In this document: piece by piece, positions 16,975 through 49,384 of the stretch | Numbering within the stretch: the stretch's first letter is position 1 | Layout of the letters: each line of letters starts with the position of its first letter | Sequence record: PQ818760.1 | Origin: Escherichia phage EcoM1 | DNA: 52,452 nt | Direction: 5' to 3' (one strand) | Notes under the pieces: generated by a model | The model's input: only the letters and a program-made list of their open reading frames with translations | Told to the model about the DNA's origin: nothing | Databases searched by the model: none | Program-made: the position numbers and the translations under genes

Positions 16975-16982
16975 AGTGCAAC

Positions 16983-17195: not shown

Positions 17196-17275
17196 AGTTA
17201 CAGTAGCATCAGATACAGATGCGTCAGCAGTTACAACTCCTGCTACAGCAGATACTGTAGGAGCTGGAGGTGGCG

Positions 17276-17749
17276 TTACGGCTTTGGGACTACGTTAATC
17301 ATGACCGGAACAACATCACCAGCGGAAGCCGGATAACGCAGGGCAGTCAGGTTGGTTGCCTTAGTGTACCCAGCACCAACACCACCAAATTCACCTTTAG
17401 TGGATACGCCAATGTTCTTGTCGGTGATTGCGGTTTTCAGTTTGACCATGATTGGGCCAGACAGCATAACGCCCAGAGGCCAGCCAACTTTAATTGCAAC
17501 AGTGCCGTCGCCAGGACGAGTAGCAGATTCGATGTTAATCTGGCGCATAGCAATGCCCAGAACAGTGCCGTCGGATTCAATACCAGGCTTAACCTGATTG
17601 GATGCCGTGCCTTGAACAACAGCCAGACCAAAGTTTGCCATTTCTTCTTCGGCAACGTAGGTCAGGCGCTGGGAGTTGGTGGTAGCCAGGCCATATTGTT
17701 CACCTGCATATGCTTCACCAGTATTAATAGACCAATCTTGCTTTGGCAT
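17276..17749 (-). CDS. head decoration-like protein
   Basis: 157 aa, Gly/Ala/Val-rich, between scaffold-like and capsid genes. Confidence 0.3.
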   Translation of the reverse strand: MPKQDWSINTGEAYAGEQYGLATTNSQRLTYVAEEEMANFGLAVVQGTASNQVKPGIESDGTVLGIAMRQINIESATRPGDGTVAIKVGWPLGVMLSGPIMVKLKTAITDKNIGVSTKGEFGGVGAGYTKATNLTALRYPASAGDVVPVMINVVPKP

Positions 17750-17758
17750 TGTCTTACC

Positions 17759-18709
17759 TTATAAAGAGTTGAAGCGTTCTAAACGACGTTTGTTAGCTTC
17801 TTCGGAAATAGAAACTTTAGGTTTACGAGCTTCTGAATCTTTCTTAGCAGCGAATTGCATAGACTGATTCAGGGCATCCCCTAAAGTAATGGAATCGCAA
17901 TCTTCAAGAGCTGCATCGAAACGGGCGGAGATGTAGTCTTCGCTCTTATCGCTGAAATCCTTGTCATGCAATTTATTAACTACAGCCAACTTAATTTCTG
18001 CATCGGTCTTGCCGGAGAAATCGAGGTTGGAGAACTCGTCGCCAAGACGGGCCACATCAACAAGCAGTGCTGTACGAGCAACTACACGTTTGTCTACCTC
18101 AGCCTGAATAGCTTCATCGGATAGTCGTGCAGTTTCTGCATCAGCAAGTTTCTGTTCAAGGGCGCTAATCTTGTCAAGCGCTGCATCACGCTCTGCTTCA
18201 ACAACATCAAAGGTTGCCTTATCAACAATGGCAATCTCTTCACCAGAGTCACCAATGCGAGTAGTCTGAGCACGACCACGAACAACAATTGCAGCATGGT
18301 TAGGGATAATGCGAACTTTATCGAAGTCGGCTTCGTCATCTTCTGACACAGCCAGTTCAGCATTATGGCCCAAGGAGATTTGGTCAACACCAGAATCAAC
18401 TAATCGAATAGCTTGCTCGTCATTCAAAACGATTGATGCAGCCAAGAAAGAACCGTCTGCAACTGGACGCCCTTCGATGAACCCTTTCTGGAGTTCTTTG
18501 TTGTTCTTGATGTTAACATCATTTTTCGGATGGCCGATAGTTACCGGAATTGAACGACAGCCTTCGATGGTTGCTTCGTCAAATAATACTTCCGGCTTGG
18601 TACGAACACGGCAAATAGATTCTGGGTCCAGATGTTTTGCGATTTCACCAAGTTCTTTCGCTTTGTACAGCATAGTGCCAGTACGAGCGATGGTGCATTC
18701 TGCAATCAT
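17759..18709 (-). CDS. head scaffolding / prohead core protein
   Basis: Follows portal; acidic with coiled-coil-like segment (ERDAALDKISALEQKLADAETARL). Track ORF starts at 18919 overlapping portal by 128 nt; reported start is the first ATG past the portal stop; a GTG near 18773 is also possible. Confidence 0.4.
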   Translation of the reverse strand: MIAECTIARTGTMLYKAKELGEIAKHLDPESICRVRTKPEVLFDEATIEGCRSIPVTIGHPKNDVNIKNNKELQKGFIEGRPVADGSFLAASIVLNDEQAIRLVDSGVDQISLGHNAELAVSEDDEADFDKVRIIPNHAAIVVRGRAQTTRIGDSGEEIAIVDKATFDVVEAERDAALDKISALEQKLADAETARLSDEAIQAEVDKRVVARTALLVDVARLGDEFSNLDFSGKTDAEIKLAVVNKLHDKDFSDKSEDYISARFDAALEDCDSITLGDALNQSMQFAAKKDSEARKPKVSISEEANKRRLERFNSL

Positions 18710-18791
18710 TTCGCCAGAGTCACGTAAACGACGGGTCGTTAAAGTAGCCTTGTCGTTCAACAAAACTACTTCATTCACGGTATCTTCGTCG

Positions 18792-20111
18792 TTAAGCTGA
18801 ACCAGGTTTTGGTTTTGCTTCACTTGCGTTACCCTTTTGGATGTTAGGAGGATTAGGATTTGGCTTACCAAGGCCACAAGTCCCGAACACGCCCGAATGG
18901 AACATGACTTCGTTTGCAACTTCAGTAGTTATGGTGCCGTTGTTAACCAGCAGGTCAACAGCGAATGCCAAATCTTTAGCTCGCTTCGCTTTCTCAACAT
19001 TGGATTCAGGGAAGATATCTAACCATTCGTAGTCATATTCTTCAATGCCAAAGTGCGCCTGGACAATCTTGTCTACCACATCTAAACGAGGGTCGAACAC
19101 AGAAGTCTGCAAGCCAGTCAACAAGTCGATATAGTTTACGAGGTCGGATTCGCCCGTAGCATTCATACCGTCTGGAGATGCAGAAAGGAAACGTGTAGCC
19201 GGAATACCAACTGCGGCAGCAACTATCTTTAAGTATTCCCAAATCAAATCTTTCACGCCAGATAGCGCAATTGACTTGGTGTCATACTTCTCAGTATTGT
19301 CGAGAATTAAGACGTTATAAATACTCTTTGCCAGCTTCATAAGTTTGAAGCGCTTCATCACAGCAGCTTCACCTTCCGGTGATGTAAGCAAGGATTGTAA
19401 GCCTTCAACAGTTACCACATCAATTGTGGCTTCTTGGGCAAGGCTGGCAGCAGCAGCGGCAGTTGTGTAGAATTGGTCAATCGTTTTCAGCAGTGGAATA
19501 AGTACCGAATCGGAATACCACATGTTGCGTTGGAATTCGAACAGCGGCAGTTCAGTACCCTCGAACCGAAGAAAGCGAGTGTAGTGGATATAGCCGGGAT
19601 ATCCAGCCAAAGTGTAATACTCTGGCAAACCATAGTGAGGACTTAAAGGGTCCAGAACCATAGTCCCTGCGGCAAATAAGCGTGAGCGGTCAATAACTCT
19701 CATGGATTTAATACATCCAGTCTTCAAGTTATCCAGTCGCAATGGTGTATCAAGTTTGCCCGTACCTTTCAGGTCGAGCAGAACAAATGAAGTACCATAC
19801 AATCTGGCCCATTGATATGCCTCACGGAACAGCTTGCGAATACGAAGTTTCTTATCCGCTCTGCGTCCTTCTTCACTATCAATATGTCGCCACTTACGCG
19901 TCATATCTTGAGGAATGACGGTACACACTTTCTGTGCAACCCAATCCTCACGGAAGCGGTTCATAAGTTCGCGATAGTTCGCGTTCTTGTTTGAGAAAGT
20001 CCACTGGTTGAAAGTAGACTTATCTGCTTGACCGCCTAACCCCGTTACAAGGTTTTCTAACCCATCTGCAACTTTAACAGAGAGATTGTTTTTCTTCTTC
20101 TTGGAAGTCAT
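18792..20111 (-). CDS. portal protein
   Basis: 439 aa immediately downstream of the terminase large subunit and upstream of scaffold/capsid genes. Confidence 0.6.
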   Translation of the reverse strand: MTSKKKKNNLSVKVADGLENLVTGLGGQADKSTFNQWTFSNKNANYRELMNRFREDWVAQKVCTVIPQDMTRKWRHIDSEEGRRADKKLRIRKLFREAYQWARLYGTSFVLLDLKGTGKLDTPLRLDNLKTGCIKSMRVIDRSRLFAAGTMVLDPLSPHYGLPEYYTLAGYPGYIHYTRFLRFEGTELPLFEFQRNMWYSDSVLIPLLKTIDQFYTTAAAAASLAQEATIDVVTVEGLQSLLTSPEGEAAVMKRFKLMKLAKSIYNVLILDNTEKYDTKSIALSGVKDLIWEYLKIVAAAVGIPATRFLSASPDGMNATGESDLVNYIDLLTGLQTSVFDPRLDVVDKIVQAHFGIEEYDYEWLDIFPESNVEKAKRAKDLAFAVDLLVNNGTITTEVANEVMFHSGVFGTCGLGKPNPNPPNIQKGNASEAKPKPGSA

Positions 20112-20335
20112 TATTTCTTCCTTAGAATAGTTCCATTACCCTTAACAATTTGAATGTTGTCGGAGGTGTGGAGTCGCAGATTTGACTCGTGCTTTAACTT
20201 AACACAGTCGCTCTCTGTGGTAGAAACTGCCTCAATCACACATAAAATGTTTCCTTCCAAATCTTGAATCTGGAAGGAGTTGTTCTTGCGTGAGCGGGCA
20301 TCTAAACGAGTGATAACCGCCATATTTACATCCAT
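20111..20335 (-). CDS. hypothetical protein
   Basis: 74 aa ORF overlapping the terminase 3' end and coupled to the portal start. Confidence 0.3.
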   Translation of the reverse strand: MDVNMAVITRLDARSRKNNSFQIQDLEGNILCVIEAVSTTESDCVKLKHESNLRLHTSDNIQIVKGNGTILRKK

Positions 20336-22371
20336 GCGGAGTAGTTGGCACTTGGGCCTGAGAATTCGATTGCAACCATATCTGAAACGTTATCGACACA
20401 ATCGTCGTGTCCAGTACCACTACCCAAAGAAGTGAATCCAAGTATTTCACGTCTAACGTGGTCGATGTGTTCATGACCAGCAGGGAAGAATATTCTCTTT
20501 TGTGAGAAATATGGGATTGCGTTAAGGAATCGAGTTACCTTGTCATTACCATTAATCCCATCACGAGGCAATGGTAAAACTCGGACACTCCCATCTCTGA
20601 TAAATTGTTGGTTCAAGAATTGTCCGGCAGACTTGTCTTCCATGTACAGTGCACGAGGAATACAACCTACACACTTCAAGTCCAACTTGTTGCATTTGTT
20701 CCAGAAGTCGATGATAGCAGTCTTGAGTTCTGGAGTTTCAAACTTACCAAGCATAATATCTAAACAATAAACATCACGCTCTTTAGTCACGCCCCAATGC
20801 TTAAGGACCGAATAATCAGAATAGGACTTGGCAGTTGATGCCGTATCCGCTGTAATAAAGCTTCTGACTATGCGACTTCTGTCGAAAACGTCTGGTTCAT
20901 ACTCTTGCCACCAATCTTCTTTGATAAGGCCGTGGCCTTGTGCAGATGGGTCGCCAGCATACTGTGAATTGTATGTGTATGGGTTAGACTCTTTCATTGC
21001 CTCCAGAGATTCTAAGCTCTTACGTGAAGGCCATAATGCAGACTTCTCTTCCTTCCTGTTCAAATTATACAGAATGGGAATAGCATGAGTGTAGTTCTGC
21101 TTCTTGATTAACTTATCATACCATTCAGCACTTCCAACTCCCTTCTCAATAATCGCTGGGATATTGAGATAGTGGTATTTGTCAGAAGAGCCGCCACGGA
21201 GTATATAACCAACTAAATCCTGGTCGTGAACTCGCTGCATGATGATAACCATTGGTGTACGGGCACACTTAATTTGGTTTCCGTACGAATCAGTTATGCA
21301 ACCATCGTTGGCAAGACGTGACATGAAGGTGTTATCAAATCGGTCGTTGATTTCTGCTCGAACTGTGTCAGAGTAGGCATCTTTAGGTTTGATAACGTCA
21401 TCCACCACGAAACAACCGGAGTATTTTGCAACAAGAAGTCCAGCACCTTTACCAGTTAACTTACCGCCAGTTGGTACTGCGTGCATAACTCCAGCTTTGG
21501 TTGTACCCCAACGTTCAAGAGAACGTTTGTTAGGGTCGATTCTCACCTTCGGGAATATGCGTTGGAACAGTGGGTCCATCATTACAGCACGGATGTAACC
21601 ACTCGATTCAAGAACAACGTCTTCTGCATACGAGGTGATAATGTTATGACTCGATTCATTGTGGCAAAATGAATACAAGGGCAATGCAATACTCATGAGC
21701 TGAGTCTTAGAGTGTCGTGGTGGAATGGTCACTATTAAGCGGTCAATCTCACCGTCAACAACCTTCTGACCAACACTGAATATTACATCGTGAAAGTCTT
21801 GTGCTTGAAATGGAAATCCCATCTGAATATGGAACTGCCATTTACCAAAGGCTTCGAAACTTTTCATCAAGATTTTGCGAACACGTTCTGCAACCTTGGC
21901 AGGGATTACAGTTGGGTCCACGTTATGTGGGTCATGCAGAATCTTGTCTACAAGTTCATCGGTGTTATCATGCTCCGAGTTTGGCTCCTCTAATGTGGAA
22001 CCTGCAACACGGTCAGTAACACCTGCTTGAATACCTTTCTTCAACTCATCTGCATAGGCAGTCGAGTCTTTCTTGTCGCCAGAGCGAAGACGCTCAAGTT
22101 GTGCTCTGAAAACGGAACGCAATACAGCATCGTTTTCAAGACCCTGGCCTTCTAACTCTGCTTGAATTTGTTCTTCATAGCTGTCAACTATTGCAGTATT
22201 TTCTGAAATATATCGACGGAGCAATGGCAAAGATAGAATACAGAATCTTTCTCTTGAGACTTTTAATACGTCACCGTAGTGTTTGGCGAGATACGAGGCT
22301 ACTGTATCATTAAACTCCGGTCCGAGGTCATCAGTCTTTGACATTGATTCGTTCTCTTTGTTTTTAATCAC
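20326..22371 (-). CDS. terminase large subunit
   Basis: 681 aa with Walker-A-like IPPRHSKTQ, Walker-B CFVVDDV, and C-terminal nuclease-like GHDDCVDNVSDM; upstream of portal. Track start is GTG at 22371; first ATG at 22344. Confidence 0.8.
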   Translation of the reverse strand: MIKNKENESMSKTDDLGPEFNDTVASYLAKHYGDVLKVSRERFCILSLPLLRRYISENTAIVDSYEEQIQAELEGQGLENDAVLRSVFRAQLERLRSGDKKDSTAYADELKKGIQAGVTDRVAGSTLEEPNSEHDNTDELVDKILHDPHNVDPTVIPAKVAERVRKILMKSFEAFGKWQFHIQMGFPFQAQDFHDVIFSVGQKVVDGEIDRLIVTIPPRHSKTQLMSIALPLYSFCHNESSHNIITSYAEDVVLESSGYIRAVMMDPLFQRIFPKVRIDPNKRSLERWGTTKAGVMHAVPTGGKLTGKGAGLLVAKYSGCFVVDDVIKPKDAYSDTVRAEINDRFDNTFMSRLANDGCITDSYGNQIKCARTPMVIIMQRVHDQDLVGYILRGGSSDKYHYLNIPAIIEKGVGSAEWYDKLIKKQNYTHAIPILYNLNRKEEKSALWPSRKSLESLEAMKESNPYTYNSQYAGDPSAQGHGLIKEDWWQEYEPDVFDRSRIVRSFITADTASTAKSYSDYSVLKHWGVTKERDVYCLDIMLGKFETPELKTAIIDFWNKCNKLDLKCVGCIPRALYMEDKSAGQFLNQQFIRDGSVRVLPLPRDGINGNDKVTRFLNAIPYFSQKRIFFPAGHEHIDHVRREILGFTSLGSGTGHDDCVDNVSDMVAIEFSGPSANYSAWM

Positions 22372-22549
22372 AATCCACTAATGGCTGAGTTTGCACGGGA
22401 TTGATGCGAATGATGCTGCCTAAACCAGAATCGGCCTTTAAATACAGGCGGTTTAGTGGCATGTATGAATCACAGATAGGACATTGCTGCGTTATGAAAT
22501 CATCTTCTGCAATTTCATAATGGCAGTTAGGACATTGTATTGTGCGCAT
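22364..22549 (-). CDS. zinc-ribbon protein
   Basis: 61 aa with CPNC...17 aa...CPIC; overlaps the terminase start. Confidence 0.4.
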   Translation of the reverse strand: MRTIQCPNCHYEIAEDDFITQQCPICDSYMPLNRLYLKADSGLGSIIRINPVQTQPLVDCD

Positions 22550-23497: not shown

Positions 23498-24124
23498 TTA
23501 TTTCTCTACTTGATAAGTTACGCGTTCAATCCAGTTGAACACTTTGAATACAGAATCACCCACTTTACCATCAACTAAATGTTCGTCCACTGTTACGCGG
23601 GTAGGTGTGTCTGGGAGGTTGATGTATCTGCGAGAATCGCCCGTGAAATCAAAACCATCACGATGCAAACGCACAATGAGGACAAAATCATAAGCAGACT
23701 CAATGGCAACGACTTCATCACCAAAACCGCCATCGGGATAAATGACATTAATAATGCCACCCATACGCCCCGCGAGTTCTTCAACACGAGCAGCTTCAAC
23801 CTTACCGAAGTAGTCTTGTCCGTGGCGAGGTTTATACACGTCTTCGCTAACGTGAATAAGAGCCTGACGAGGTGTTCTGCCACCAAGACCTGCAAGGGAG
23901 ATAGAGTCTTTGAGGTCACGGTCCGAAGCGTAGTGAATAAACTTGTCCACATCAACTTGAAAGTGTTTGGCAGTATGCTCATACAGTGCATCCTTAAACT
24001 GGTGTTTAATGAATTTGCGTCTACCGAGAAAGTATGGTTCCTCGGCAGCAACAATCTTATTTACAATGGTATCTTTACCGCAGCCAGGAGGTCCATTGAG
24101 AATAACAGCTAGTCGCTTAATCAA
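23498..24124 (-). CDS. P-loop nucleotide kinase (dNMP-kinase-like)
   Basis: Walker A GPPGCGKDT near the N-terminus. Start taken as TTG at 24122-24124 with GAGGAAA 5 nt upstream, overlapping the ligase stop; the track ORF extends to 24226 inside the ligase gene. Confidence 0.5.
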   Translation of the reverse strand: MIKRLAVILNGPPGCGKDTIVNKIVAAEEPYFLGRRKFIKHQFKDALYEHTAKHFQVDVDKFIHYASDRDLKDSISLAGLGGRTPRQALIHVSEDVYKPRHGQDYFGKVEAARVEELAGRMGGIINVIYPDGGFGDEVVAIESAYDFVLIVRLHRDGFDFTGDSRRYINLPDTPTRVTVDEHLVDGKVGDSVFKVFNWIERVTYQVEK

Positions 24125-24872
24125 AACTTTCCTCACTTTTGTCTGCACGTAAACGGACGAGTGACGGGAACCGGAACTTGCCAGCTTCTGTCTTCTCACG
24201 ATATCGAACTTGCATAATCGAACCAATTAGCTCGTGGCGATGTTCCCACAACCACTTACGAATCAATGGGTTAGATTCTGGAACACCGTGGTCTGCCAGG
24301 CAATCTTTCACCATTGAACCAGCACTACCGTAGTTCGAGGAGATAGAACCACACATACCTTTAAGAGCACCAGTACCTTCTTTCATACCAGTAATCTTCA
24401 CATCGGCATATTTATATGGTACAATCTTCCACCATTTACCTCTTGCATCACGGACAATGATACCTTCATGACCAAGCGCCAGATATTTATCCATCAATGC
24501 CTTAAGGTTTTCATTGCTTGGGTCTTTGCACCAGCCGATGTACAGGCGTGGGTCAACAGCACCATCACTCAACTCGTAAACGTTTTCTTGCGATAACGGT
24601 ACGGTCGGAGGGTCGATACGCCCAAGGATAGATGAAGTCTCGTTCCAGGAACCGCGAAAGATTTCTGCATCTTTAAATTTGAGATGGTCGCAGTGAGGGA
24701 GAGGTTTAGAGTTGCGGCTCCATACCTCACCAGAAGCATTACGAATCGCTCGTATGCCGTCAATTTTGATGTACAATTCGCATCGACCACGAATAAGACA
24801 GTTTGGGTCTTCCCAATCATGTGCGTGAGCCTTTGTATATCTTGTACCATCAGCGAGGAGCTTAATAGACAT
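24117..24872 (-). CDS. ATP-dependent DNA ligase
   Basis: Adenylation motif I YIKIDGIR (KxDG) plus EGIIVRD; small ligase as in T7-type replication modules. Confidence 0.8.
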   Translation of the reverse strand: MSIKLLADGTRYTKAHAHDWEDPNCLIRGRCELYIKIDGIRAIRNASGEVWSRNSKPLPHCDHLKFKDAEIFRGSWNETSSILGRIDPPTVPLSQENVYELSDGAVDPRLYIGWCKDPSNENLKALMDKYLALGHEGIIVRDARGKWWKIVPYKYADVKITGMKEGTGALKGMCGSISSNYGSAGSMVKDCLADHGVPESNPLIRKWLWEHRHELIGSIMQVRYREKTEAGKFRFPSLVRLRADKSEESFD

Positions 24873-25397: not shown

Positions 25398-26435
25398 TTA
25401 TTTCTGGAGGTACTCTTCTTGAGTGAGGATACGATTCTCTTTAAGGTCAAAGTATTCGTTAATGTTCTTGTAATGCCACAAGCGAACACAATTACCCTTT
25501 TCAATTTGATGGTGCATGTAAACAAGACGGCCCACTTTGAGCAGCTCTTGTTCCCAACCATCTCCGAAGCGCATAATGTATGCACCAATAACTTTCTTCA
25601 AACCTTCTGCATAGGAGGTTGTACCATCCAGCATTTCGAATGAAGCGACTGCACCAATGCCGTCACGACGGAAATAAGTTTCACCAGCTTTGGCACCAGT
25701 TTTGTAAATTCTTTCTTCAAGAACTCCGCAACCCATAACGTTATCCGTTGAGTCGCCAATAAGCAATTGATGCAAGAAGAATTTAGGGCCATTACCTTTA
25801 ACTTCTTTCTTCTTCGATTTGCCATTGTCCTTGATGATTAATTTGAGTTCTCCGTAGTCCTGCGGAGTTACAACCTTCTCACCAATACCCTGGGTTTCTC
25901 GTTCCCATTGGTAATGTTTAATTACTGGACCAGCACCACCATTCTGCCCGATTTGTCGCAAGTCTTTGTCCAGCGACGCAATCCAGACTTCATCATATGT
26001 GCAAGGACCAATGCGCTTGAGGCTCTTAATCTCATTACGTTTGCCCATTGTCATTTCGTATTCATGACGTGCGAATACAGCAAGTAGGTCGTCTGCTTCC
26101 AGACCTTTCATCCACACACCGTTCCAGGCAACCATAAGATGTGCTTTCGCATTCTTCAAGTTTTCTGGTCGCCAAACATCATCACGGTTGCCTTTGTAAT
26201 TCTCGGCAAGAACGTTACGGAATGTTTTGGATGGTGAAATGCAGGTAACTACTTCTGTAGCTCCCACACGTTTCGCAAGGAATTCCATCTTGGAATCCAT
26301 TGACATTTGAATCTTAGCAAAGTTAATATCTTCTGAATCTTTGCCGTATTCCTCAGCAGCACAGTGACTGAATGCAACCATGTCGCCGTCAACCAGCAAC
26401 AAAACTCGTTTCTTACTCACTTTGGTAAGCTCCAA
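25398..26435 (-). CDS. 5'-3' exonuclease / flap endonuclease
   Basis: N-terminal LLLVDGDMVAF and GDSTDNVMGCGV motifs of the FEN/5'-3' exonuclease family. Track start is TTG; a GTG at 26420 has better Shine-Dalgarno spacing. Confidence 0.8.
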   Translation of the reverse strand: MELTKVSKKRVLLLVDGDMVAFSHCAAEEYGKDSEDINFAKIQMSMDSKMEFLAKRVGATEVVTCISPSKTFRNVLAENYKGNRDDVWRPENLKNAKAHLMVAWNGVWMKGLEADDLLAVFARHEYEMTMGKRNEIKSLKRIGPCTYDEVWIASLDKDLRQIGQNGGAGPVIKHYQWERETQGIGEKVVTPQDYGELKLIIKDNGKSKKKEVKGNGPKFFLHQLLIGDSTDNVMGCGVLEERIYKTGAKAGETYFRRDGIGAVASFEMLDGTTSYAEGLKKVIGAYIMRFGDGWEQELLKVGRLVYMHHQIEKGNCVRLWHYKNINEYFDLKENRILTQEEYLQK

Positions 26436-27351: not shown

Positions 27352-27597
27352 TTACAGTTGAGTGATAACTAGGGAGAAGTCCAGGTCGTTCATACAAGAG
27401 ATTAACTCTTGCTCATTGACGACAGGACCAGATAAAGTTTTAATGAATGCCTGATACATTGAATTGGTAGCATAATCACTTCCAAATAATGCTTCAACAT
27501 TCTCGGTAATTACAGACAGCACAGCTTCCCGTGCGTCTTCACCTTTCTTGACAAAATGGAAATGGTCCACTTTGTCGAATATAGATACAACAACCAT
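27352..27597 (-). CDS. hypothetical protein
   Basis: 81 aa coupled to the DNA polymerase stop. Confidence 0.35.
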   Translation of the reverse strand: MVVVSIFDKVDHFHFVKKGEDAREAVLSVITENVEALFGSDYATNSMYQAFIKTLSGPVVNEQELISCMNDLDFSLVITQL

Positions 27598-29510
27598 TAG
27601 TGAATCTCTGCGTAGTTATCGCCAAATTGTACATCACATGCACAATCGCGATTGAGTTTAAGTTCTTTGTTGGTTCGGCCCATTGCCTCATTAAGCAAGT
27701 CCGTCCACAAATCACGGAAACCTTTCTTAACTTGGAGAATCAATTCATCATGGAATTGCCCGGACAGAAGCGGGTCACAGCCCCAACGTTCATTACAAAT
27801 TGCAATGATGTTGTTACACCAAATATCAAACACATATGCACCAGTACCCTGACACAATGTTGAGAAGCGGTCTTTCTCTGTACGCAGCGAATACCAGAAT
27901 TTGTTTACTGGATTCTGTTGCCACATCTGACCATCAATTGTTACAACTTTGGTATTGGCTGCAATCTCTTTGATTGACCAGTTCAAGTCCCAATATGCTT
28001 TATGAAGTCGTGCAGCAGTAGTCTGGTCACAGCCAGCAGAACGAGCTACAGTTGGTACACCAGCGCCATACTGACAAGCATAGTTTGTGGTCTTAAACAT
28101 TGGACGTTGTTTACACTTCTTAATTCCGTCCTTGTGGTCCTGAGATTCTTGTTCTGTAATAAATCCACCAATTACGCCGATTGCAAGGTGAGCATCATAG
28201 TCTGGTGCCAACTGCTTCTTAACGTATTCAGGGTCATACATCCACTGGAAGTGGTGTTTACAACGGTCTTCCAGAGAACACAAGTCAGAGCCTAGCTGTT
28301 CGTAGTCTTCACGCCACGCTTCCAGCATTGAACGCAGTTCTTCACCGCCAAATACACGAATAGAAGGGAGGTTAACAAGTTCGCGATGTTTAAGGCGTAA
28401 AGTATTGGTAAGGCCACCACATCGTGCAGTAAGGAACCCATCTTCATCGACGTCGCGAAGGAAGCCATTAACAACAGACAGACGGTGTTTATACACGCCC
28501 ATCCCAATAAGATGTTGAATACCAGATTCGGGGTTTCTTTCCGCCAGCTTATGCAAGCTCGGACATATTTCAGGATTGCCATCTTCATCCTTCACAGTGA
28601 TTTGTGGAATCTGGCGAGTTTCACCTGTTTCCTTGTTACGGTCAAACTTAAAGGTTTCCGGTTCCCAGCCTAGGCTGAACAACCAATCTTTGATTTGAAC
28701 ATGTGAACCAGCATTAGGCTTCTTATAACCTTTAAGAACTTTGATAGCCAGGTCTGGGTCTTTCCAATCCAAACCGTTCGCATCACAAATAGCCTTCCAC
28801 TTAATTCCAGTGGCAGACAGTTGCCCGTTCATCTTGTGGCATTTAGCTGGACGGGTTTTGATAACATATTCCGGAACACGCGGCATTGATGCTTCCAATG
28901 CGTCCGTCTTCTCTTTAATCATTGGCTCCAGCTTGGCCTTAAATGCCAATGCCTTCTCAATGTTCAGCTTCCAGCGAGTACGTTGCTGAATAACTTGTTG
29001 ACGAGCTTTTGTCATCAGGTATTCAACGAAGCGTTTAACTTCGCTAGGAGATTTATAAATCTTCAAGAGTTGAATGTATTGCTGTTCCCACAGCTTCAAC
29101 TGAATCTTGCAGTCTTCCATCACACGATGGTTGTACTCTTCTTGAGTTTGATTTTCCCAATCTTCAATGACTGGTTTTGGCACACCAAACTCTTCACCAT
29201 AACCCTCTAAGCCGTGCTTAACACGACGAGGTTGCAGATACCAACTGATAAACAAGGTATCAATCAGAGTACATTTTGAAACGTCATAACCCAAGAACCT
29301 CAATGCTTCAAAGTCAAAGGTTGCGCCATTGTGCATGATTAGTGTTGGGCCTGTATCCAGAAATGCCTGGATAGATTTTCTGTCGGTCCACTCTATTACA
29401 GTTTCTTCACGAGTTAGAACATCAATATATCCGATGTTGTGAAGACGTGGTGCAGCTTGCTTGCGCATTTGCTCCAACAGGCCAGTTGTTTCAATGTCAC
29501 TGGCATACAT
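27597..29510 (-). CDS. DNA polymerase, family A (T7 gp5-like)
   Basis: N-terminal MYASDIETTGL exonuclease motif (T7 DNAP begins MIVSDIEAN), motif B RPMFKTTNYACQYGAG, motif C QFHDE. Start at ATG 29510; track extends to GTG 29531. Confidence 0.85.
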   Translation of the reverse strand: MYASDIETTGLLEQMRKQAAPRLHNIGYIDVLTREETVIEWTDRKSIQAFLDTGPTLIMHNGATFDFEALRFLGYDVSKCTLIDTLFISWYLQPRRVKHGLEGYGEEFGVPKPVIEDWENQTQEEYNHRVMEDCKIQLKLWEQQYIQLLKIYKSPSEVKRFVEYLMTKARQQVIQQRTRWKLNIEKALAFKAKLEPMIKEKTDALEASMPRVPEYVIKTRPAKCHKMNGQLSATGIKWKAICDANGLDWKDPDLAIKVLKGYKKPNAGSHVQIKDWLFSLGWEPETFKFDRNKETGETRQIPQITVKDEDGNPEICPSLHKLAERNPESGIQHLIGMGVYKHRLSVVNGFLRDVDEDGFLTARCGGLTNTLRLKHRELVNLPSIRVFGGEELRSMLEAWREDYEQLGSDLCSLEDRCKHHFQWMYDPEYVKKQLAPDYDAHLAIGVIGGFITEQESQDHKDGIKKCKQRPMFKTTNYACQYGAGVPTVARSAGCDQTTAARLHKAYWDLNWSIKEIAANTKVVTIDGQMWQQNPVNKFWYSLRTEKDRFSTLCQGTGAYVFDIWCNNIIAICNERWGCDPLLSGQFHDELILQVKKGFRDLWTDLLNEAMGRTNKELKLNRDCACDVQFGDNYAEIH

Positions 29511-29596: not shown

Positions 29597-31363
29597 TTAT
29601 TGATGTGGACCGTTCTTCTTAGTAAGTTGAACAATCTCTTTGGTTTCGAACAGCGAGTCGTCCCAAGAACGTTGAATAATTCGACCAGATTCGGTGTCAT
29701 AATACGTCTTGAAGCCTTCTGTTTTACCACTCTTACGAGCCTTAATGGAACGAATGATAGAACAGTTTGGGTCAACTGCCTGGCTATTACGCTCAAAGCC
29801 AAACATACCATGAGAATATTTAGCAGCAGCACGAGAGCCAGTAAAGTCTGACTTCTTAATACGTCCACCATCCTCATGAGGTCGTTGACCTTTTGCCACA
29901 GGGTTAAGGTGCGACAAGATATTTACATGGAACTGGTATTGGTCTGCCAGCTTAGTAATATCTGCATACAGCTTACCTAAGAAGTCGTTCTTCTCTGAGG
30001 CAGAAATCCCTTCCGATAAGTAGGTTAAGTTATCAAGGACAAACATATCAATGTCTGGTCCAATCTGACGAAGAATCGTCTTTAACCCATCCCAGGTTTC
30101 ATAAGGGTCTTCTCCAGCTTGCTTGCGGTCCCAAATCTCCATGTTACGAAGCATCTTCGCAGCAGTTTGACGGAACTTAGCTTCATCATATCGAGGGTCT
30201 TCACGAGTAAACGCAGGTTCCCAATACGGCAAGTTGTCATTAAGGCCAGCCATTCGGCGCAGTGTTTCTGTAGGAGTTTCCTCCATGTATGCAGTAAACA
30301 CTCCCCAATCGTGCTTGGTAATGTTGTGATGCACAATCTGACGGGACAAGGTAGTTTTACCACCACCTTCTGCACCACCTATTGTAATAACTTCGGCTCG
30401 ACGTTGACCAAACATTAAGTCGGTTAACTTGGGCCAAGGATAGTCCACACCCTGTTCAACCTCATCATCAAGCTCTTCCATAAGAAGTTCTTTGTTGACA
30501 AGTGCTGTAGGCAGAGGACGAGCAGCACGGAACACAACAGCAGATTGAGTAGCTTTCAGCAAGCCACGCTTCAAACAATCGTTAGCATCGTTAGCTGGAA
30601 GTGTTGCAATCATTGCACCAGGCAACAATCGGCACGCTTCTTTTGCAGCTTTACGTCCAGGCTCATCATCATCAAATACGATAACAACCTGCTCCCAACG
30701 TTGCTTAATTTCTTCTGCAACTGGTGACAAACATTTGTGTACGGAATCACTTCCGTCACTCAAACTAATTACAGCAAAATCCAAATCCTCATATGCACCA
30801 CCACGGTTCATAGTTTTGAGGATTTGACGCAATGCGATGCAGTCTTCTTCACCTTCTGTGATGAACAGTGTCTTACCGCCAATTGCTTTTGCAGCCATCC
30901 AGTTGTAAGGGTCGTTACCCTGGGTGTCGCCAACTGACCACATAACTTTCTTGTTCAGAAGTTTAATCTTCCAACGAACAAGTTTACCATTTTTGGTGTA
31001 GCCATGCGCCAGAGCATTTGGAGTCTTCCCATCATACTCTGAATACAGAAGTCGAACACCAGCAGCTTTCCAGAATTCTGGCTCGATGCTGCGATGGGTT
31101 AAATCAAACGGGGGACAAGCAGTGATTTCATCAACTTCTTCCTGAATTTCTTCTGGAGTTTTGACTTTAATCTCTGGAATGTTCTCCGGATTATTACCAT
31201 AAGGATTTGGTACTAGAACGCCACATGCAAAGCAGTAACCAGAGAAGTTCTTATTACCAGCTTCATCGACATTCAACCAAACCTGTAAAGACTTGCCAGA
31301 TGTGGATTTACAGTCTGGTACATCGTGTTTAATCTTGGCAACACATTGCTTAACGTTCATCAT
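29597..31363 (-). CDS. primase-helicase (T7 gp4-like)
   Basis: N-terminal Cys4 zinc ribbon (C..C...C..C), TOPRIM-like FITEGEEDCIA, DnaB-type Walker A GGAEGGGKTT. Confidence 0.85.
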   Translation of the reverse strand: MMNVKQCVAKIKHDVPDCKSTSGKSLQVWLNVDEAGNKNFSGYCFACGVLVPNPYGNNPENIPEIKVKTPEEIQEEVDEITACPPFDLTHRSIEPEFWKAAGVRLLYSEYDGKTPNALAHGYTKNGKLVRWKIKLLNKKVMWSVGDTQGNDPYNWMAAKAIGGKTLFITEGEEDCIALRQILKTMNRGGAYEDLDFAVISLSDGSDSVHKCLSPVAEEIKQRWEQVVIVFDDDEPGRKAAKEACRLLPGAMIATLPANDANDCLKRGLLKATQSAVVFRAARPLPTALVNKELLMEELDDEVEQGVDYPWPKLTDLMFGQRRAEVITIGGAEGGGKTTLSRQIVHHNITKHDWGVFTAYMEETPTETLRRMAGLNDNLPYWEPAFTREDPRYDEAKFRQTAAKMLRNMEIWDRKQAGEDPYETWDGLKTILRQIGPDIDMFVLDNLTYLSEGISASEKNDFLGKLYADITKLADQYQFHVNILSHLNPVAKGQRPHEDGGRIKKSDFTGSRAAAKYSHGMFGFERNSQAVDPNCSIIRSIKARKSGKTEGFKTYYDTESGRIIQRSWDDSLFETKEIVQLTKKNGPHQ

Positions 31364-35121: not shown

Positions 35122-35200
35122 TTGTATATACCTTATATTGAATAGTTTTGCACGCCACGGTGACGTGACTTAGATAAAAATTAAAGAGCCTTTCTCTTTC

Positions 35201-35221
35201 CACATCCAACTAATGTTTCAG
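35201..35221 (-). promoter_or_regulatory. phage promoter-like element
   Basis: + strand cacatccaactaatgtttcag; gene-strand reading ctgaaACATTAGTTGGATGTG; 80 nt upstream of the ATG at 35121. Confidence 0.4.
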
Positions 35222-36699: not shown

Positions 36700-37422
36700 A
36701 GGAACTCTCCAATTTTCGATTCAATGTTTGTGACTTCTCTTCTCATCTTTTGGCCCAGGAACAGGCCACAGGGTAGCGCAGGAAGGCCGAAAATCGGGCC
36801 ACTGCCTACCGTTTGTGTCAATTCTGGATAACTGCATTGGTGAAGGGTTACTCCCGTTAGGGTGCGATACGCTAATCACATGAGTGTCGTCGCCTTGCGG
36901 CTCAGGCGTGTCACAGAGGCTTTGCAACCCTTCCCAATACATTCACCCAATCCACCTGCTTTGGCATAGCTGGTGGCGCGGTTTTGTGCGGATTATGCCA
37001 CTCTAAGCCCTGTTTGTCCGACTTCCTCAGAGCACCAGCGGCTTGTGGCACAAACCTATTTTCGAATGACTAACATAAGCATGAGGCATAACCCTCTAAT
37101 TATTCAGCCCTAACAGCTTGCTTATTTAGTTCCAATTCATCCCAATACATCGCCTATAACAAGTGAATAGCTTTTCTGCGAAGAAGTATTCCGGCCCTTT
37201 GGCCTATGTTAAAAGATAAATGTATATGATGGAAACATTCCATCGAAAATAACTTTGTAGAATGAGTCGAACATTCTCGCACGATGCGGCCGCAACGGTC
37301 TACCGAGTTACAAAGTTATTATCTGATGTTGTTTCTTCAATTCCAACTAATGTTTCAGAATTATTCCAATATTCCAAACAAAAAGAATAATAAGAATAAA
37401 TTAAAATAAATGAAGAAAGTGC

Positions 37423-37458: not shown

Positions 37459-37482
37459 CTTCCCTAAGTGGTCAGAATCAAA

Positions 37483-37499
37483 TCCCACTAATGTTTCAG
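37483..37499 (-). promoter_or_regulatory. phage promoter-like element (variant)
   Basis: + strand tcccactaatgtttcag, 30 nt right of the sigma70 -10 box. Confidence 0.35.
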
Positions 37500-41466: not shown

Positions 41467-41539
41467 GATTAAGATTCTCTTAAGTTAATTACAGTTTAAG
41501 TTTCAGCGACATTGCTAACCACGGAATAGCTTTGTCTCT

Positions 41540-41557
41540 CACATCCAACTAATGTTA
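41540..41557 (-). promoter_or_regulatory. phage promoter-like element
   Basis: + strand cacatccaactaatgtta, 74 nt upstream of the ATG at 41466. Confidence 0.4.
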
Positions 41558-45424: not shown

Positions 45425-45531
45425 ATGTGACACAGCAAGTGCCGAAAAACTACAATGATTAGCTTGGAGACATAATCTCTCTAAAATCTGTCACACAATT
45501 TCAGCAGAATTTACAGAGATTTGGTCTTATT

Positions 45532-45548
45532 CACATGCAACTAATGAT
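45532..45548 (-). promoter_or_regulatory. phage promoter-like element (GCATGTG variant)
   Basis: + strand cacatgcaactaatgat; same as the recurrent element with c-to-g at one position. Confidence 0.3.
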
Positions 45549-46446
45549 AAATGGACATGCTTAATTGCAACTAACTCATCTGCCAAATAGACGAATTTTG
45601 TCACAATTAAACATGCATCATTAATTACAGGTTTGCTCCTATCTTGGAATGTATTTGGCACATCAAGAAGTGGCGCAATAGGTACGGAAAACCGACCATT
45701 TACAGCATAATAAAACTAATTAAATAAAGGGTTTTACCCCAATATTGTCACAATATTTACATGCGATGATAAAGCCTTCGCTTGGCTGGAAGCCAGTATT
45801 CATGCGGGTTGCAAGAATATTGGGTCAATACTGATACAGCTATTACATGCGAAATTGGCACAAATGTTGTTACAAAATTAACATGCCAGATTGGTAGACG
45901 ATTGTATCTTCGAGGTGATTAGTCCTCTAACAATTCTGCCACATTCCAACATGCCAATTTGTAGCAATATTTACATGCCATACTGCGACAATATTGTCAC
46001 AATATTTGTTGCTCAAAATCGGGGCGGGCTACGGGATTAGTTTCGATGCTTTGTCCGACTTCTTCTCTTCTTTCGAATTCTGATTGAAAGAAAGAAGCAT
46101 GTCCAAAAGTTCCAATATTACCAAAGTTATCTCCCGGCTTGTGGGTGGGCCTTTATAATAGGAGATGGAGCAATATTGAAACAAGTGGACATGCTGATTT
46201 GCTGACTTTCTTGTAACTTAATCAAGATGGCTAACACGATGTTCTGTTGTTAGTTCAGCACCGGAAGTAACAGTTTCGAATGATAATCCTACTTCACACA
46301 TGGTTGCTGGAACTTTGTCCGGCCAAAGACAGGGAGTTCAATGATTGCCACATCATTACAACACTGTATGTTTAGTTGACATGCTGAAATGTTTCTAGAA
46401 TGATTTCAACATGACATGCGGAATACTTCTCCGTATTCTGTTACTT

Positions 46447-46464
46447 CACATCCAACTAATGTCG
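46447..46464 (-). promoter_or_regulatory. phage promoter-like element
   Basis: + strand cacatccaactaatgtcg; coordinates anchored on the plus ORF starting at 46411. Confidence 0.35.
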
Positions 46465-46512
46465 AATATCGAGACAATATTACATGCAGCAATATTGTCT
46501 GAATATTGGGAA

Positions 46513-46680
46513 TCAGTTGAGCGTAGGCTTAACAACTTCATACTGCTTATCACCATCAGTGATTTCACAGTCTACATAGATATTCTCTTCACGAGCTGCA
46601 AACTTACGTGCTTCCTCTAAAGTCTCAAACTTCTCACAAACTGTTTTGCCGTAGTATGTAACGAGGTTAACTGCAAACAT
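46513..46680 (-). CDS. small protein (55 aa)
   Basis: Found by hand: GGAG 7 nt upstream of ATG at 46680, TGA at 46513-46515; a variant promoter-like element ends 29 nt upstream. Confidence 0.3.
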   Translation of the reverse strand: MFAVNLVTYYGKTVCEKFETLEEARKFAAREENIYVDCEITDGDKQYEVVKPTLN

Positions 46681-46708
46681 ATTATGCTCCAAATTGGTTT
46701 ATTAGATT

Positions 46709-46725
46709 CACATGCAACTAATGCC
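46709..46725 (-). promoter_or_regulatory. phage promoter-like element (GCATGTG variant)
   Basis: + strand cacatgcaactaatgcc, immediately after the polymerase stop and 29 nt upstream of the 55-aa ORF. Confidence 0.3.
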
Positions 46726-46743
46726 ATCCTTGGCACATAGTTG

Positions 46744-48684
46744 TTACTGACAGAAGTAGTAAGCGTGTTCGCTCATCAGCAACTCTTCTGTAACAATGTT
46801 CTCATGATACATCTGAATGCCACCAAGTTGCTTAGACAGATTCTCGAATTGATTGTTGGTTACAAAGATTTCAACATATGCTGCACGAATAACTTCCATC
46901 ATACGTGGAGCATCTGCCAGACAGCAACGGAAACAATCATGGATTGAAGTAAAGCCACGAAGACCAGCCTCTTTAGCTTTAACTGCAACAGTACGAGCAA
47001 CCAATGCGTCAATACCTTGAATGTAGTTAACAACGAAAGTACGCTTGAATTCTTCTTTAGTTGGATTGGATTCACGAATGGTCCAAGGCTTATTCTCCTG
47101 AATCTGGCCAAAGATAACACGAGTTTGAGAGTCAACACGAATGCTGAATGCCTCACAGATTTCACGAGATGGGAAGCAAGGCTTCATTACAACCTGACCA
47201 TCAGTGTGACGATATGTGATGTACTCTTTACCAAGTTCAACACAACGGTTGTATGCAGCATCAGCAGCCTTCTCAATGAACATGTTAATCTTAGCACCCA
47301 ATGCGTTATGGATTGCTTCTACACACAGTTCAGCAAATGCCTCAGCTTTCTCCATAGGAATCTGGAGCGCTTCTGTCATGTAGCTAATGAAGTCAGATGA
47401 ACCAGTTAATGCAGCTTTACCACCACCATATTGAATAGCCATGTACGGAGTTTTGATAAACTTACGACCAGCTTTCGGATTCAAGAATTCATCCATGATT
47501 TCAGGAGATGGTTTCATTGAAGAACGGTCTAATAACTTCAACAGTTCACGAAGAGATAACTGGTATGGGTCAGATGCTTTAGTCTCAGAATCAACCAGAC
47601 CTGTTGCACGAGCCATTTCCATGTTACCAGCAATGAATGCCAGATATTGAGTACCAGAACATTTAGCATCTAGGCCAAAGCCTACACGAGAATCGCACTC
47701 ACCTGTAGTCTCAAACTTGAACCAATCCAGAGCCAGACGAACATAAGTGAATGGCTTGGAAGGACGTTCAGCTTTAGGCATGTTCATCATGCGAGCAAGT
47801 GAACCAGCTGGATTCTGAGCAACATAAGTTAAACGCTTAGCAGTACACCATTCACCACCCGAAATATCTTCCAGCTCTGCCATGAACATGTTGTATGCAA
47901 TGGTAGTAGAACCATCTTCGTTAAACTTCTTAACGATGTTCTCAACATTGTGAGAATACAAGCAACGAGCAAAGTCAGATGATTGTGGGTTAGGACCAGC
48001 ACATGCTACATGATACAGACGACCACGGTTATCAGCAAAGTAGTCAGAGTACAGCTTATCCTGATTCATCATTGCTACAGCATTGTTCCAAACATGGAGT
48101 TCAGTCTGGATTGCTTCTGGCATCTGCAAGCCACCATAAGTACGTTGCTCAATCATGGACTGGATGATGCGAACCATCTCAGTCTCCACATGGTACTCAG
48201 TATCTTGCAGGAATTCGATTGCAGCTTTCAGAGTTTTGGATGGCTTAACTTTGCCACCTTTAACGAAAGGCTTGCGACGAGATTCAGATGTAACACGCTC
48301 AGTGAATGGCACTGCTGTGTCTTTGGTTGTAACCAGCTCAACCCATGTGTCAGTCTGTTGGAATGACTTGTCTTCGTTCATGGTGATGAAGCCAAAGTGC
48401 TTAGCCAGACCAATGAGGTTGATAGCTGGGTCAACATAGTGCATTGCTTTCAAATCGTTGTTATAACGGTTGGCATCAGCAATAGAAGCAGAAGCCAGCT
48501 CAACCATCGCGATGGCAGGAACAACGTCATCACGAGTGAAAGACGTCATCATCTTGAAGATGGCTAAGGCAGCAATAGCACAAGTCTGAGGCTGCATATA
48601 GTTCTGTTTCTCTTTGGCACGGTATACCAGAGCAGTGATAGCAGGAACAACGGATTTGATAGTTTGAGTAGTGATAGTAGTCAT
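46744..48684 (-). CDS. single-subunit DNA-dependent RNA polymerase (T7-type)
   Basis: 646 aa with the three catalytic motifs of T7-class polymerases: LDAKCSGTQYLAFIAG (T7 DGSCSGIQHF, motif A), KTPYMAIQYGGGK (T7 KRSVMTLAYGSK, O-helix K/Y), TSIHDCFRCC (T7 LIHDSFGT, motif C). Shorter than T7 RNAP (883 aa). ATG start with GGAG 9 nt upstream. Confidence 0.85.
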   Translation of the reverse strand: MTTITTQTIKSVVPAITALVYRAKEKQNYMQPQTCAIAALAIFKMMTSFTRDDVVPAIAMVELASASIADANRYNNDLKAMHYVDPAINLIGLAKHFGFITMNEDKSFQQTDTWVELVTTKDTAVPFTERVTSESRRKPFVKGGKVKPSKTLKAAIEFLQDTEYHVETEMVRIIQSMIEQRTYGGLQMPEAIQTELHVWNNAVAMMNQDKLYSDYFADNRGRLYHVACAGPNPQSSDFARCLYSHNVENIVKKFNEDGSTTIAYNMFMAELEDISGGEWCTAKRLTYVAQNPAGSLARMMNMPKAERPSKPFTYVRLALDWFKFETTGECDSRVGFGLDAKCSGTQYLAFIAGNMEMARATGLVDSETKASDPYQLSLRELLKLLDRSSMKPSPEIMDEFLNPKAGRKFIKTPYMAIQYGGGKAALTGSSDFISYMTEALQIPMEKAEAFAELCVEAIHNALGAKINMFIEKAADAAYNRCVELGKEYITYRHTDGQVVMKPCFPSREICEAFSIRVDSQTRVIFGQIQENKPWTIRESNPTKEEFKRTFVVNYIQGIDALVARTVAVKAKEAGLRGFTSIHDCFRCCLADAPRMMEVIRAAYVEIFVTNNQFENLSKQLGGIQMYHENIVTEELLMSEHAYYFCQ

Positions 48685-48752
48685 TTGTAAGTCTCCAAGA
48701 TTGTGTATGATTTAACTGAAACGGATTATAATAGCGTAGCCATTACACAATT

Positions 48753-48770
48753 CACTTCCAACTAATATCA
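48753..48770 (-). promoter_or_regulatory. phage promoter-like element upstream of the polymerase gene
   Basis: + strand cacttccaactaatatca, 69 nt upstream of the polymerase ATG; a TATAAT hexamer lies between it and the gene. Confidence 0.35.
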
Positions 48771-48909
48771 CAAACCTGTGCCATTGTTACAACAGCACGG
48801 AGACTTTGACCTTGACCTATAAGCGAAGCGCCTAACTTGGTGTTGTTTGAAAGCCGATAGGCTTTAGGAAAAAGTTGGGGTAGGGACCGTATTTTAAGTC
48901 CGATAGGAC

Positions 48910-49270
48910 GTTGGGCTTCCCCTCCTCGGAGATAAAAATTTTAAAATAATAATGTCACAACTTCCCCTCCTCGCTGGCCCAAAAATAAAAATTATAATTT
49001 TGCCACAATTCTAGTCTCATTAATATTGTAGCAATTTGAGTCTCATTAATTCCGTAACAATATTCGAAATAAAAAAAATTATATAAAAATTTTTATAACA
49101 TAGTCGGACTTCTGTTGTTACTTCGTAACGGGTTCGAACAAATTTCGGCTAGATACAGCTGACCGACCGTGAACGAATCTATATCCAGGTACAGTTGACC
49201 GACCATGTACCATTTGGTTTTGAACTTTACGCATTCCTAATATTACTTTAAATATTGTAGCAATATTGGG
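48910..49270 (-). repeat. AT-rich non-coding block with paired direct repeats
   Basis: Duplicated cttcccctcctcg (48916, 48961), (t/g)agtctcattaat (49012, 49038), ACAG(C/T)TGACCGACC(G/A)TG (49155, 49191), aatattgtagcaat (49022, 49251), and long A/T runs. Coordinates anchored on the polymerase start and the nrdB stop. Confidence 0.45.
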
Positions 49271-49384
49271 AATAAGTAATATTTAACTTTACTTATTTTA
49301 TTCTAGCTCAAAGAGAAACGACGCTAACGCATCGAATCTCTTCTCGCATATTAACTGACAAACGTCAGCCCTCACCGTATCCAA

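Follow-up and report, generated by a model that had tools for sequence, protein, structure and literature searches.

The pairing of a T7-type RNA polymerase (RNAP) with a contractile-tail virion was reportedly first described in 2008, for phage phiEcoM-GJ1. The same RNAP and myovirus combination is reported for phage ST32 (PMC6266442), and the profile of the Chaseviridae by the international committee for virus taxonomy (ICTV) gives it as a known trait of the family (PMC12842549). The hybrid as such is a diagnostic trait of the Chaseviridae and nothing new. Here we consider gene 1 of Escherichia phage EcoM1 (record PQ818760.1), whose sequence of 52,452 bp we refer to as the window, and the sites from which its product may transcribe the genome. 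The best overall explanation, to which we assign a probability of roughly 0.9, is that the gene is gene 1 of a Carltongylesvirus genome and encodes an active, compact T7-class RNAP, which would transcribe the gene array from directional promoters.

Genome identity and family placement

Chaseviridae have double-stranded DNA genomes of 52–56 kb with a G+C content between 39.3 and 52.5%, which are linear and non-permuted with direct terminal repeats of ~3 kb (ICTV 2022). The window is a complete chasevirus genome of ~52 kb carrying a single copy of the terminal repeat, and its size and G+C (~0.39–0.50 in 2-kb windows) fit the family criterion. All substantial open reading frames (ORFs) lie on the minus strand, and no tRNA genes were found in the window. 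Phage phiEcoM-GJ1 was collinear across the whole window at 88–92% nucleotide identity, and ST32 matched at 95–97% over 94–100% of the length when the ORF region and both halves were compared (97.3% over bases 1–25000; 95.2% over 94% of bases 25001–50000). The differences from ST32 are at strain level only, with a few indels in the early region. Dozens of further isolates from E. coli, Yersinia, and Shigella were also collinear, and the matching records are classified as Chaseviridae; Cleopatravirinae; Carltongylesvirus. The window is a phiEcoM-GJ1/ST32-like Carltongylesvirus. Membership in the family and genus is clear, and the species-level call is borderline under the criterion that members of one species share >95% nucleotide identity over the genome (ICTV 2022). 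One further record, PP952070.1, "Staphylococcus phage Pel53" (host Staphylococcus hyicus), shows ~89% DNA identity over most of the genome; this host label looks implausible for the group and may reflect mis-assignment or contamination.

RNA polymerase gene and catalytic core

The polymerase gene and its three catalytic motifs, with residues numbered in amino acids (aa), are as follows.

46744..48684, minus strand: T7-class single-subunit RNA polymerase gene, gene 1 of chaseviruses, 646 aa (ORF, PF00940, PHROG 414, and fold)
47638..47682, minus strand: motif A, aa 335–349, GFGLD339AKCSGTQYLA, in which D339 equals T7 D537, a catalytic metal ligand
47422..47466, minus strand: motif B, aa 407–421, R407KFIK411TPYMAIQY419GG, with the equivalents of T7 R627, K631, and Y639
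46927..46953, minus strand: motif C, aa 578–586, FTSIH582D583CFR, in which D583 equals T7 D812, the second catalytic Asp

The ORF opens with ATG and encodes 646 aa. Its product matches the Pfam family RNA_pol (PF00940) over residues 322–621 (65.3 bits against a curated cut-off of 22, E=5.9e-18) and the "RNA polymerase" family PHROG 414 over residues 16–645 (E=5e-98), with the latter alignment starting only at profile position 154 of 816. The gp1 proteins of ST32, phiEcoM-GJ1, flopper, and TH53 are the same protein, also 646 aa long, encoded by the first gene in genomes of the same organisation and 92–99.8% identical at the amino acid level; the annotated RNAPs of TH53, flopper, and ST32 are 99.4–99.8% identical to the protein studied here.

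A family profile of 65 homologues, reaching down to 34% identity, aligned to T7 RNAP with 97.9% probability (hhalign), pairing residues 199–604 with T7 402–833. In this alignment D339, R407, K411, Y419, and H582-D583 take the places of T7 D537, R627, K631, Y639, and H811-D812, and all are invariant in the family, as are S343, G344, T345, and Q346 of motif A and I581 of motif C. Further upstream, D218/R220/R222 correspond to T7 D421/R423/R425, while the position of T7 H784 differs, being occupied by Q556, which is itself invariant. By equivalence with T7, the role of motif B is nucleoside triphosphate (NTP) binding and ribose discrimination. With the ribose-discriminating Tyr (Y419) kept, the enzyme is expected to make RNA and not DNA.

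The predicted structure points to the same family. An AlphaFold (AF2) model built from the homologue alignment (pLDDT 92.4, pTM 0.86) had T7 RNAP complexes as its best Foldseek matches (E=7e-19, TM 0.61, 14–15% identity), followed by the yeast and human mitochondrial RNAPs. In the palm, fingers, and C-terminal part the fold is that of T7 RNAP (Autographiviridae; PDB 1CEZ, 1QLN, 3E2E), whereas the chasevirus enzyme is 237 aa shorter and only ~14–15% identical, and its phage has a myovirus rather than a podovirus virion. The N4 RNAPII (PDB 6DT7), a heterodimeric minimal T7-like RNAP, consists of two polypeptides and requires accessory factors for promoter use. The chasevirus RNAP is instead a single chain that keeps a hairpin resembling a specificity loop, and its best match in sequence and fold is T7 RNAP, not N4 RNAPII.

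Several observations concern the gene and its relatives more broadly. Some records, among them the metagenome cluster representative P0001 and Mangalitsa (CDS 211..2325), place the start further upstream and give a product of 704 aa; it is the 646-aa start that has a TGGAGA Shine-Dalgarno sequence and yields the length conserved across the family. A homologue with 52% identity lies in a Hafnia alvei chromosome (NJFP02000002.1, a 4.8-Mb contig, 6881..21947) with host genes adjoining, where the order integrase, holin, endolysin, RNAP, small ORFs, ArdA is the circular gene order of the window. The observation also takes in a 51.8-kb Logan contig, and further homologues occur in contigs of Pseudomonas brenneri (6.3-Mb), Lelliottia, and P. 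laurylsulfatiphila. Integrase-bearing chasevirus-like prophages therefore seem, from gene order and homology, to exist; ICTV describes the Chaseviridae as lytic. The ST32 paper (PMC6266442) contains no virion proteomics bearing on packaging of the RNAP.

Compact N-terminal region and specificity loop

Two regions of the polymerase stand in place of T7 elements that contact the promoter.

48091..48684, minus strand: compact N-terminal region, aa 1–198, in place of T7 1–401 (promoter-binding domain and thumb), from alignment and model
47050..47202, minus strand: beta-hairpin region, aa 495–545, containing ...SIRVDSQTRVIFGQ..., in place of the T7 specificity loop, from model and alignment

The shortfall of 237 aa relative to T7 RNAP (883 versus 646) arises mainly because ~200 N-terminal residues replace ~400. 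The ~198 chasevirus residues that stand opposite T7 1–401 show no detectable sequence similarity to it: a Smith-Waterman comparison of residues 1–215 with T7 1–420 scored 42, against 34 +/- 5 for shuffles, which was not significant. A Pfam search of the region gave no match even at E<=10. Modelled alone, the region reached a pLDDT of 87.5, and residues 32–110 followed the order H-b-H-H-b-b (H, helix; b, strand), a winged-helix-like topology. Foldseek of this isolated model returned nothing significant and placed T7 RNAP outside the top 50; the list consisted mostly of winged-helix proteins (best E=0.045, below significance). From the model we take it to be a promoter-binding region that has been heavily trimmed and has a winged-helix-like core. 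The N-terminal promoter-binding domain of T7 RNAP comprises an AT-rich recognition loop, an intercalating hairpin, and the refolding subdomain H. It may be a cut-down T7 domain, with hairpin 100–110 serving as the intercalating hairpin, or a different module.

The hairpin of aa 495–545 would supply the second element of promoter recognition. In the AF2 model it forms strands (E506–537) directly before the NYIQGID segment, which aligns to T7 781–787. The hairpin (...SIRVDSxTRVIFGQ...) is nearly invariant among the enzymes of E. coli, Erwinia, and Proteus phages and different in a distant clade, so that the region is conserved where the promoter motif described below is shared. By analogy with T7, we infer that this hairpin acts as the specificity loop.

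The first-pass annotation, which was made from the letters and their translations, had proposed that the 646-aa ORF carries the three catalytic signatures of T7-class polymerases, that it is about 240 aa shorter than T7 RNAP, and that its promoter-binding and N-terminal parts may differ. All of this holds up. Motifs A, B, and C are invariant in the 65 homologues, the profile match it had proposed as a check lies above the curated threshold, the length difference is as measured above, and the alignable core excludes the N-terminal part.

A candidate promoter motif

Promoters of chaseviruses have been predicted before, for phiEcoM-GJ1 and PP101, and never validated, so the idea of a promoter motif is not original to this work. 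The phiEcoM-GJ1 record EF460875 annotates two "putative phage promoters" (TATCATTAGTTGCATGTGAA and CGACATTAGTTGGATGTGAA) downstream of gene 1, which share the core ATTAGTTG[C/G]ATGTGAA and represent the same motif as the one described here. For PP101, eight consensus promoters were hypothesised in 2020 (Lukianova et al., PMC6989608); the consensus is given in a figure only. Chaseviruses are absent from the main text of two papers on promoters of single-subunit RNAPs (NAR 2025 and Biotechnol J 2024). Relative to the EF460875 and PP101 predictions, the motif is here quantified (by enrichment, strand, and an intergenic test), traced to syntenic places across five genera, and not present in Nefertitivirinae.

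The motif has the core (a)CATTAGTTG[G/C]A[T/A]GTGAA and lies on one strand in intergenic positions. The candidate promoter sites in the window are as follows.

48751..48766, minus strand: ATTAGTTGGAAGTGAA, 66 nt upstream of the RNAP start; same site in ST32
46707..46722, minus strand: ATTAGTTGCATGTGAA, directly behind the RNAP stop, 14 nt ahead of gp2; also in ST32
46445..46460, minus strand: ATTAGTTGGATGTGAA, equal to "putative phage promoter 1" of the phiEcoM-GJ1 record
45530..45545, minus strand: ATTAGTTGCATGTGAA, equal to "putative phage promoter 2" of phiEcoM-GJ1, upstream of the early gene cluster
41538..41553, minus strand: ATTAGTTGGATGTGAG, 71 nt upstream of the SSB gene; syntenic in ST32, Y2, Myduc, 4HA13, and PM1
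37477..37492, minus strand: ctgaaacATTAGTGGGATTTGAT, in a ~1-kb gene-poor gap
37336..37351, minus strand: ctgaaacATTAGTTGGAATTGAA, in the same ~1-kb gene-poor gap as the 37477 site
35199..35214, minus strand: ctgaaacATTAGTTGGATGTGGA, between the gp31 and gp32 homologues
27475..27490, minus strand: weaker candidate ATTATTTGGAAGTGAT, downstream of the DNA polymerase gene (within the small gp41 ORF in ST32)
22367..22382, minus strand: weak candidate ATTAGTGGATTGTGAT, 4 mismatches, ~22 nt upstream of the probable terminase large-subunit start, as estimated from ST32 gene calls
7856..7871, minus strand: ATTAGTTGAATATGTA, in the gap between the tape-measure-position and baseplate hub genes; syntenic weak site in Y2

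The motif is strongly over-represented. Allowing <=3 mismatches, the 16-mer has 12 matches in the window against 1.5 expected (~8-fold), a number reached in none of 100 shuffles, and 11 of the 12 lie on the coding strand. An unbiased count gave CATTAGTTGGA as the most over-represented 11-mer of that strand, and de novo searches confined to non-coding gaps placed the motif among the top words in the window, Erwinia phage Y2, and Proteus phage Myduc. These counts keep strict matches only. An iteratively refined position matrix drifted into coding patterns (GTTGATGGTGA...), and its 26–33 "sites" per genome were discarded. Since every gene lies on the same strand, strand bias is a confounded measure, and we instead used an intergenic test with the independent RefSeq gene calls of ST32. 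There, 11 of 13 coding-strand matches were intergenic, although only 11.6% of the sequence is non-coding (P=3e-9), and a single match fell on the other strand.

The placement of the motif is also conserved. Sites occur at syntenic places in five genera, Carltongylesvirus, Loessnervirus, Myducvirus, Sabourvirus, and Suwonvirus, whose RNAPs are 66–77% identical: in the RNAP leader (including those of Y2, Myduc, 4HA13, and PM1), just after the RNAP gene (in the same four phages), and 30–70 nt upstream of the SSB gene. The gene array is unidirectional, and the directional motif stands in the intergenic DNA ahead of gene blocks; across the early and middle regions its distance to the gene start downstream is 14–190 nt. 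The candidate sites right after the RNAP gene are placed as phi1.1A/B are after T7 gene 1, while the motif itself bears at most a loose resemblance to T7/SP6-type promoters. In the Nefertitivirinae phage VPs20, whose RNAP is ~36% identical, no copy of the motif was found on either strand. That genome has a one-strand intergenic motif of its own, (GGGCTCG..)GCTCGCCCACTAGAA, with 7 copies from right after the RNAP gene (2317..5120 and 20996). G+C-rich segments with the potential to pair stand before some copies. This motif is a promoter candidate in the divergent RNAP clade.

On this evidence the motif is probably the promoter of the chasevirus RNAP, or at least its best candidate. The alternative that survives best accepts the RNAP assignment and holds that the CATTAGTTGGATGTGAA motif is not its promoter, being instead a site bound by some other factor of phage or host (a regulator or anti-terminator), an element acting at the RNA level (in processing or translation), or a recombination or replication signal, with the true promoters lying elsewhere, for example in the GCATGT/AATATTGTGACAATATT units downstream of gene 1. 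Several points weigh on that side and against the promoter interpretation. The late region is nearly devoid of good matches, its only two sites (22382 and 7871) both being poor; within the RNAP leader the motif occupies varying positions with respect to the other conserved blocks; the same genomes hold a second conserved motif family; ICTV lists chasevirus promoters as unidentified (PMC12842549); and the support assembled here is statistical and comparative, which leaves the motif with candidate status. We nevertheless consider this alternative unlikely. Regulator sites are typically dyad-symmetric and indifferent to strand, whereas inspection of the sites revealed no dyad symmetry and the motif is asymmetric, one-stranded, and intergenic, at the distances from early and middle gene starts given above. 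Copies of the second motif family occur only in two clusters, close to the terminal-repeat boundaries, and are not distributed ahead of gene blocks. The variable leader position looks, from the comparison of genomes, like turnover of a site under selection. Promoters of T7-class enzymes, used without further factors, are asymmetric and ~17–23 bp long, and the motif fits the T7 group in length and asymmetry.

A sigma-70 promoter in which TTGGAT/TTGCAT would be the -35 element was considered as well. We rejected this reading, since no -10 element was present 16–18 nt downstream at the three sites checked.

Terminal repeat and early expression

One feature places the RNAP gene relative to the genome end.

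46062..48897, minus strand: approximate direct terminal repeat, transferred from relatives, containing the RNAP gene

The RNAP gene appears to lie ~213 nt from the physical left end, inside the ~3-kb direct terminal repeat. This placement follows from the PhageTerm-annotated repeats of three relatives (Mangalitsa 1..3234, Myduc 1..3202, and 4HA13 1..3120), all of which contain the RNAP gene, and from shared record starts: two records start at the same base of the query, and the Y2 record begins at the same sequence. Repeat limits were mapped onto the window by BLAST, the assembly of the window holding a single repeat copy. The terminal repeat of T7 is far shorter, at 160 bp. Because the chasevirus gene is first on the genome and inside the repeat, its product would be expressed early, with the first RNAP presumably made by the host RNA polymerase.

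In a consensus scan of the coding strand, the stretch from the inferred left end to the RNAP start codon contained no canonical sigma-70 promoter. The best-matching sigma-70-like sequence, at 49020..48991 (10/12 matches), is outside the left repeat copy and would precede only the right-hand copy.

A second alternative is that the RNAP gene is a degenerate or repurposed relic, primase-like or origin-activating, and that transcription is performed essentially by the host RNA polymerase. The N-terminal domain is indeed drastically reduced. In T7, the RNAP has the further task of priming replication at the primary origin, which adjoins gene 1, and in the window gene 1 is followed by a 1.1-kb spacer rich in repeats. 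ICTV states that host machinery and viral RNAP both mediate transcription (PMC12842549). A relic is nonetheless very improbable in our judgment, as the catalytic and NTP-selecting residues are invariant even in homologues of 34% identity and the RNAP gene is kept in every family member. Across the 4.7 kb scanned around gene 1, sigma-70-like sites do not exceed their frequency in shuffles, and the inspected motif sites lack a properly spaced sigma-70 -10 element.

The DNA around the genome end shows further structure. The leader that spans the physical left end (48684..48960, minus strand) is conserved between genera in several blocks: the terminus sequence GACTTAAWAATACGGTCCC; an invariant AGCCTATCGGCT and a second block, CCTATCGG, just outside the end; and GCTACGC beside a perfect TATAAT (48730..48725) that has no recognisable -35. 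These blocks may be signals for the terminase or for recognition of the end, or they may form an early promoter of an unconventional kind. The second motif family consists of a near-palindrome, AATATTGTNACAATATT, with ~10 copies, often after GCATGT(A/T)AA, in two minus-strand clusters. One cluster (45740..46520) occupies the 1.1-kb gene-free spacer downstream of gene 1/gp2 and the other (49020..49270) lies upstream of the left end of the genome, both near the inferred repeat boundaries (~46062 and ~48897). The family ranked top in the non-coding DNA of Y2 and Myduc. The loose pattern GCATGTWAAT was not enriched genome-wide (16 matches versus 10.7 expected), and only the local cluster is notable. 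The array could be a replication origin, an operator array for a regulator, or a set of signals for generating the terminal repeat. A terminator-like hairpin (CGATGCGTTAGCGTCG with a T-rich tail) at 49319..49334 (minus strand), just after nrdB, is the last structure before the genome-end region.

Tail and replication modules

Alongside the T7-class enzyme and a replisome of T7-like type, the genome carries a virion module of the contractile-tail kind. The genes of the two modules are as follows.

12726..14174, minus strand: tail sheath, 482 aa (PHROG 205 E=5e-100, DUF3383, Pam3 sheath 8hdr_M E=1.7e-17)
12260..12715, minus strand: tail tube, 151 aa (PHROG 280; solved "Tube protein" 9mt4_P E=9e-11; Pam3 tube)
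11790..12248, minus strand: tail assembly chaperone (PF21822, PHROG 11820)
7905..11630, minus strand: virion protein of 1241 aa at the tape-measure position (profile matches)
2543..7832, minus strand: baseplate module of hub, Dit-like protein, small virion structural protein (gp69 homologue), spike, W-like wedge, J-like protein, and DUF2612 (I-like) protein
27597..29510, minus strand: family-A DNA polymerase, starting MYASDIETTGLLE (PF00476, PHROG 17 E=2e-98, translation)
29597..31363, minus strand: T7 gp4-type bifunctional primase/helicase (Toprim and DnaB_C; PHROG 239 E=5e-147)
25398..26435, minus strand: 5'-3' exonuclease (profile matches)
24117..24872, minus strand: ATP-dependent DNA ligase (PHROG 114 E=4e-38)

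Baseplate proteins were named from profile matches (Baseplate_J, DUF2612) and the RefSeq names of ST32, and the replication genes found also include SSB and ThyX. The first-pass annotation had described a contractile-tail layout, a T7-like replisome with a family-A polymerase, primase/helicase, exonuclease, and ligase, and a genome of the phiEcoM-GJ1 type (Chaseviridae). Each description was confirmed. The sheath, tube, chaperone, tape-measure-position, and baseplate genes were recovered, including the 482-aa and 151-aa proteins it had singled out for checking, as were all four replication genes, with the polymerase start reading as predicted; whole-genome comparison gave 88–97% collinear identity to records classified as Chaseviridae. 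The idea that faulty assembly joined a T7-like podovirus to a myovirus has nothing in its favour beyond the unusual combination of gene modules, and we rejected this practically negligible possibility because the whole window is collinear, at that identity, with dozens of independently isolated and sequenced phages of E. coli, Yersinia, and Shigella, and because family members, including phiEcoM-GJ1, have contractile tails in electron micrographs (ICTV profile, PMC12842549).

The 1241-aa protein has an embedded lambda-exonuclease/YqaJ nuclease domain (aa 440–660) and a C-terminal SLT lytic transglycosylase (aa 1059–1152). The nuclease assignment draws on PF09588 (E=2e-13), PHROG 434 (RecE-like), and the solved exonuclease 3SYY (E=1.8e-7), and the PD-(D/E)XK signature is retained as SPDG..D..EHK. 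The nuclease is probably active, judging by this signature, and its placement in a protein of the tail-tube lumen is unusual. It might act on host or incoming DNA during ejection.

A model for transcription and its implications

In the model that we favour, the RNAP, once made, would transcribe the single-strand array from ~9–11 directional promoters with the core given above. Early and middle genes would be transcribed from ~9 strong sites, with read-through into the late genes. The site in the leader of the RNAP gene could provide positive feedback, two or three sites would act just downstream of the gene, and others would stand ahead of the SSB, middle, and baseplate blocks. Promoter recognition would involve the hairpin specificity loop (aa ~495–545) together with the reduced N-terminal domain (~150–200 aa, winged-helix-like).

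A more specific proposal, which we put forward tentatively and hold to be less than an even bet, is that this is a naturally minimised single-chain RNAP. It would have a winged-helix-like module of ~150 aa, lack the T7 refolding subdomain, use a 17–22-bp promoter, (a)CATTAGTTGGATGTGAA, in at least five genera, and be autoregulated from the leader copy inside the terminal repeat. To our knowledge, the chasevirus RNAP is one of the shortest T7-class enzymes that consist of a single chain.

Small orthogonal polymerases are wanted for synthetic biology and RNA manufacture, and promoter prediction is reported as the limiting step for such polymerases (PMC11475235). If the proposal is true, the chasevirus enzyme and its motif would make up a compact orthogonal polymerase-promoter pair. 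For the family, the motif offers a promoter candidate that is open to direct test. The reduced N-terminal domain is relevant to the question of which T7 RNAP parts can be dispensed with in recognising and leaving the promoter, and a minimised enzyme would carry out initiation and promoter escape by a mechanism other than the large N-terminal refolding of T7.

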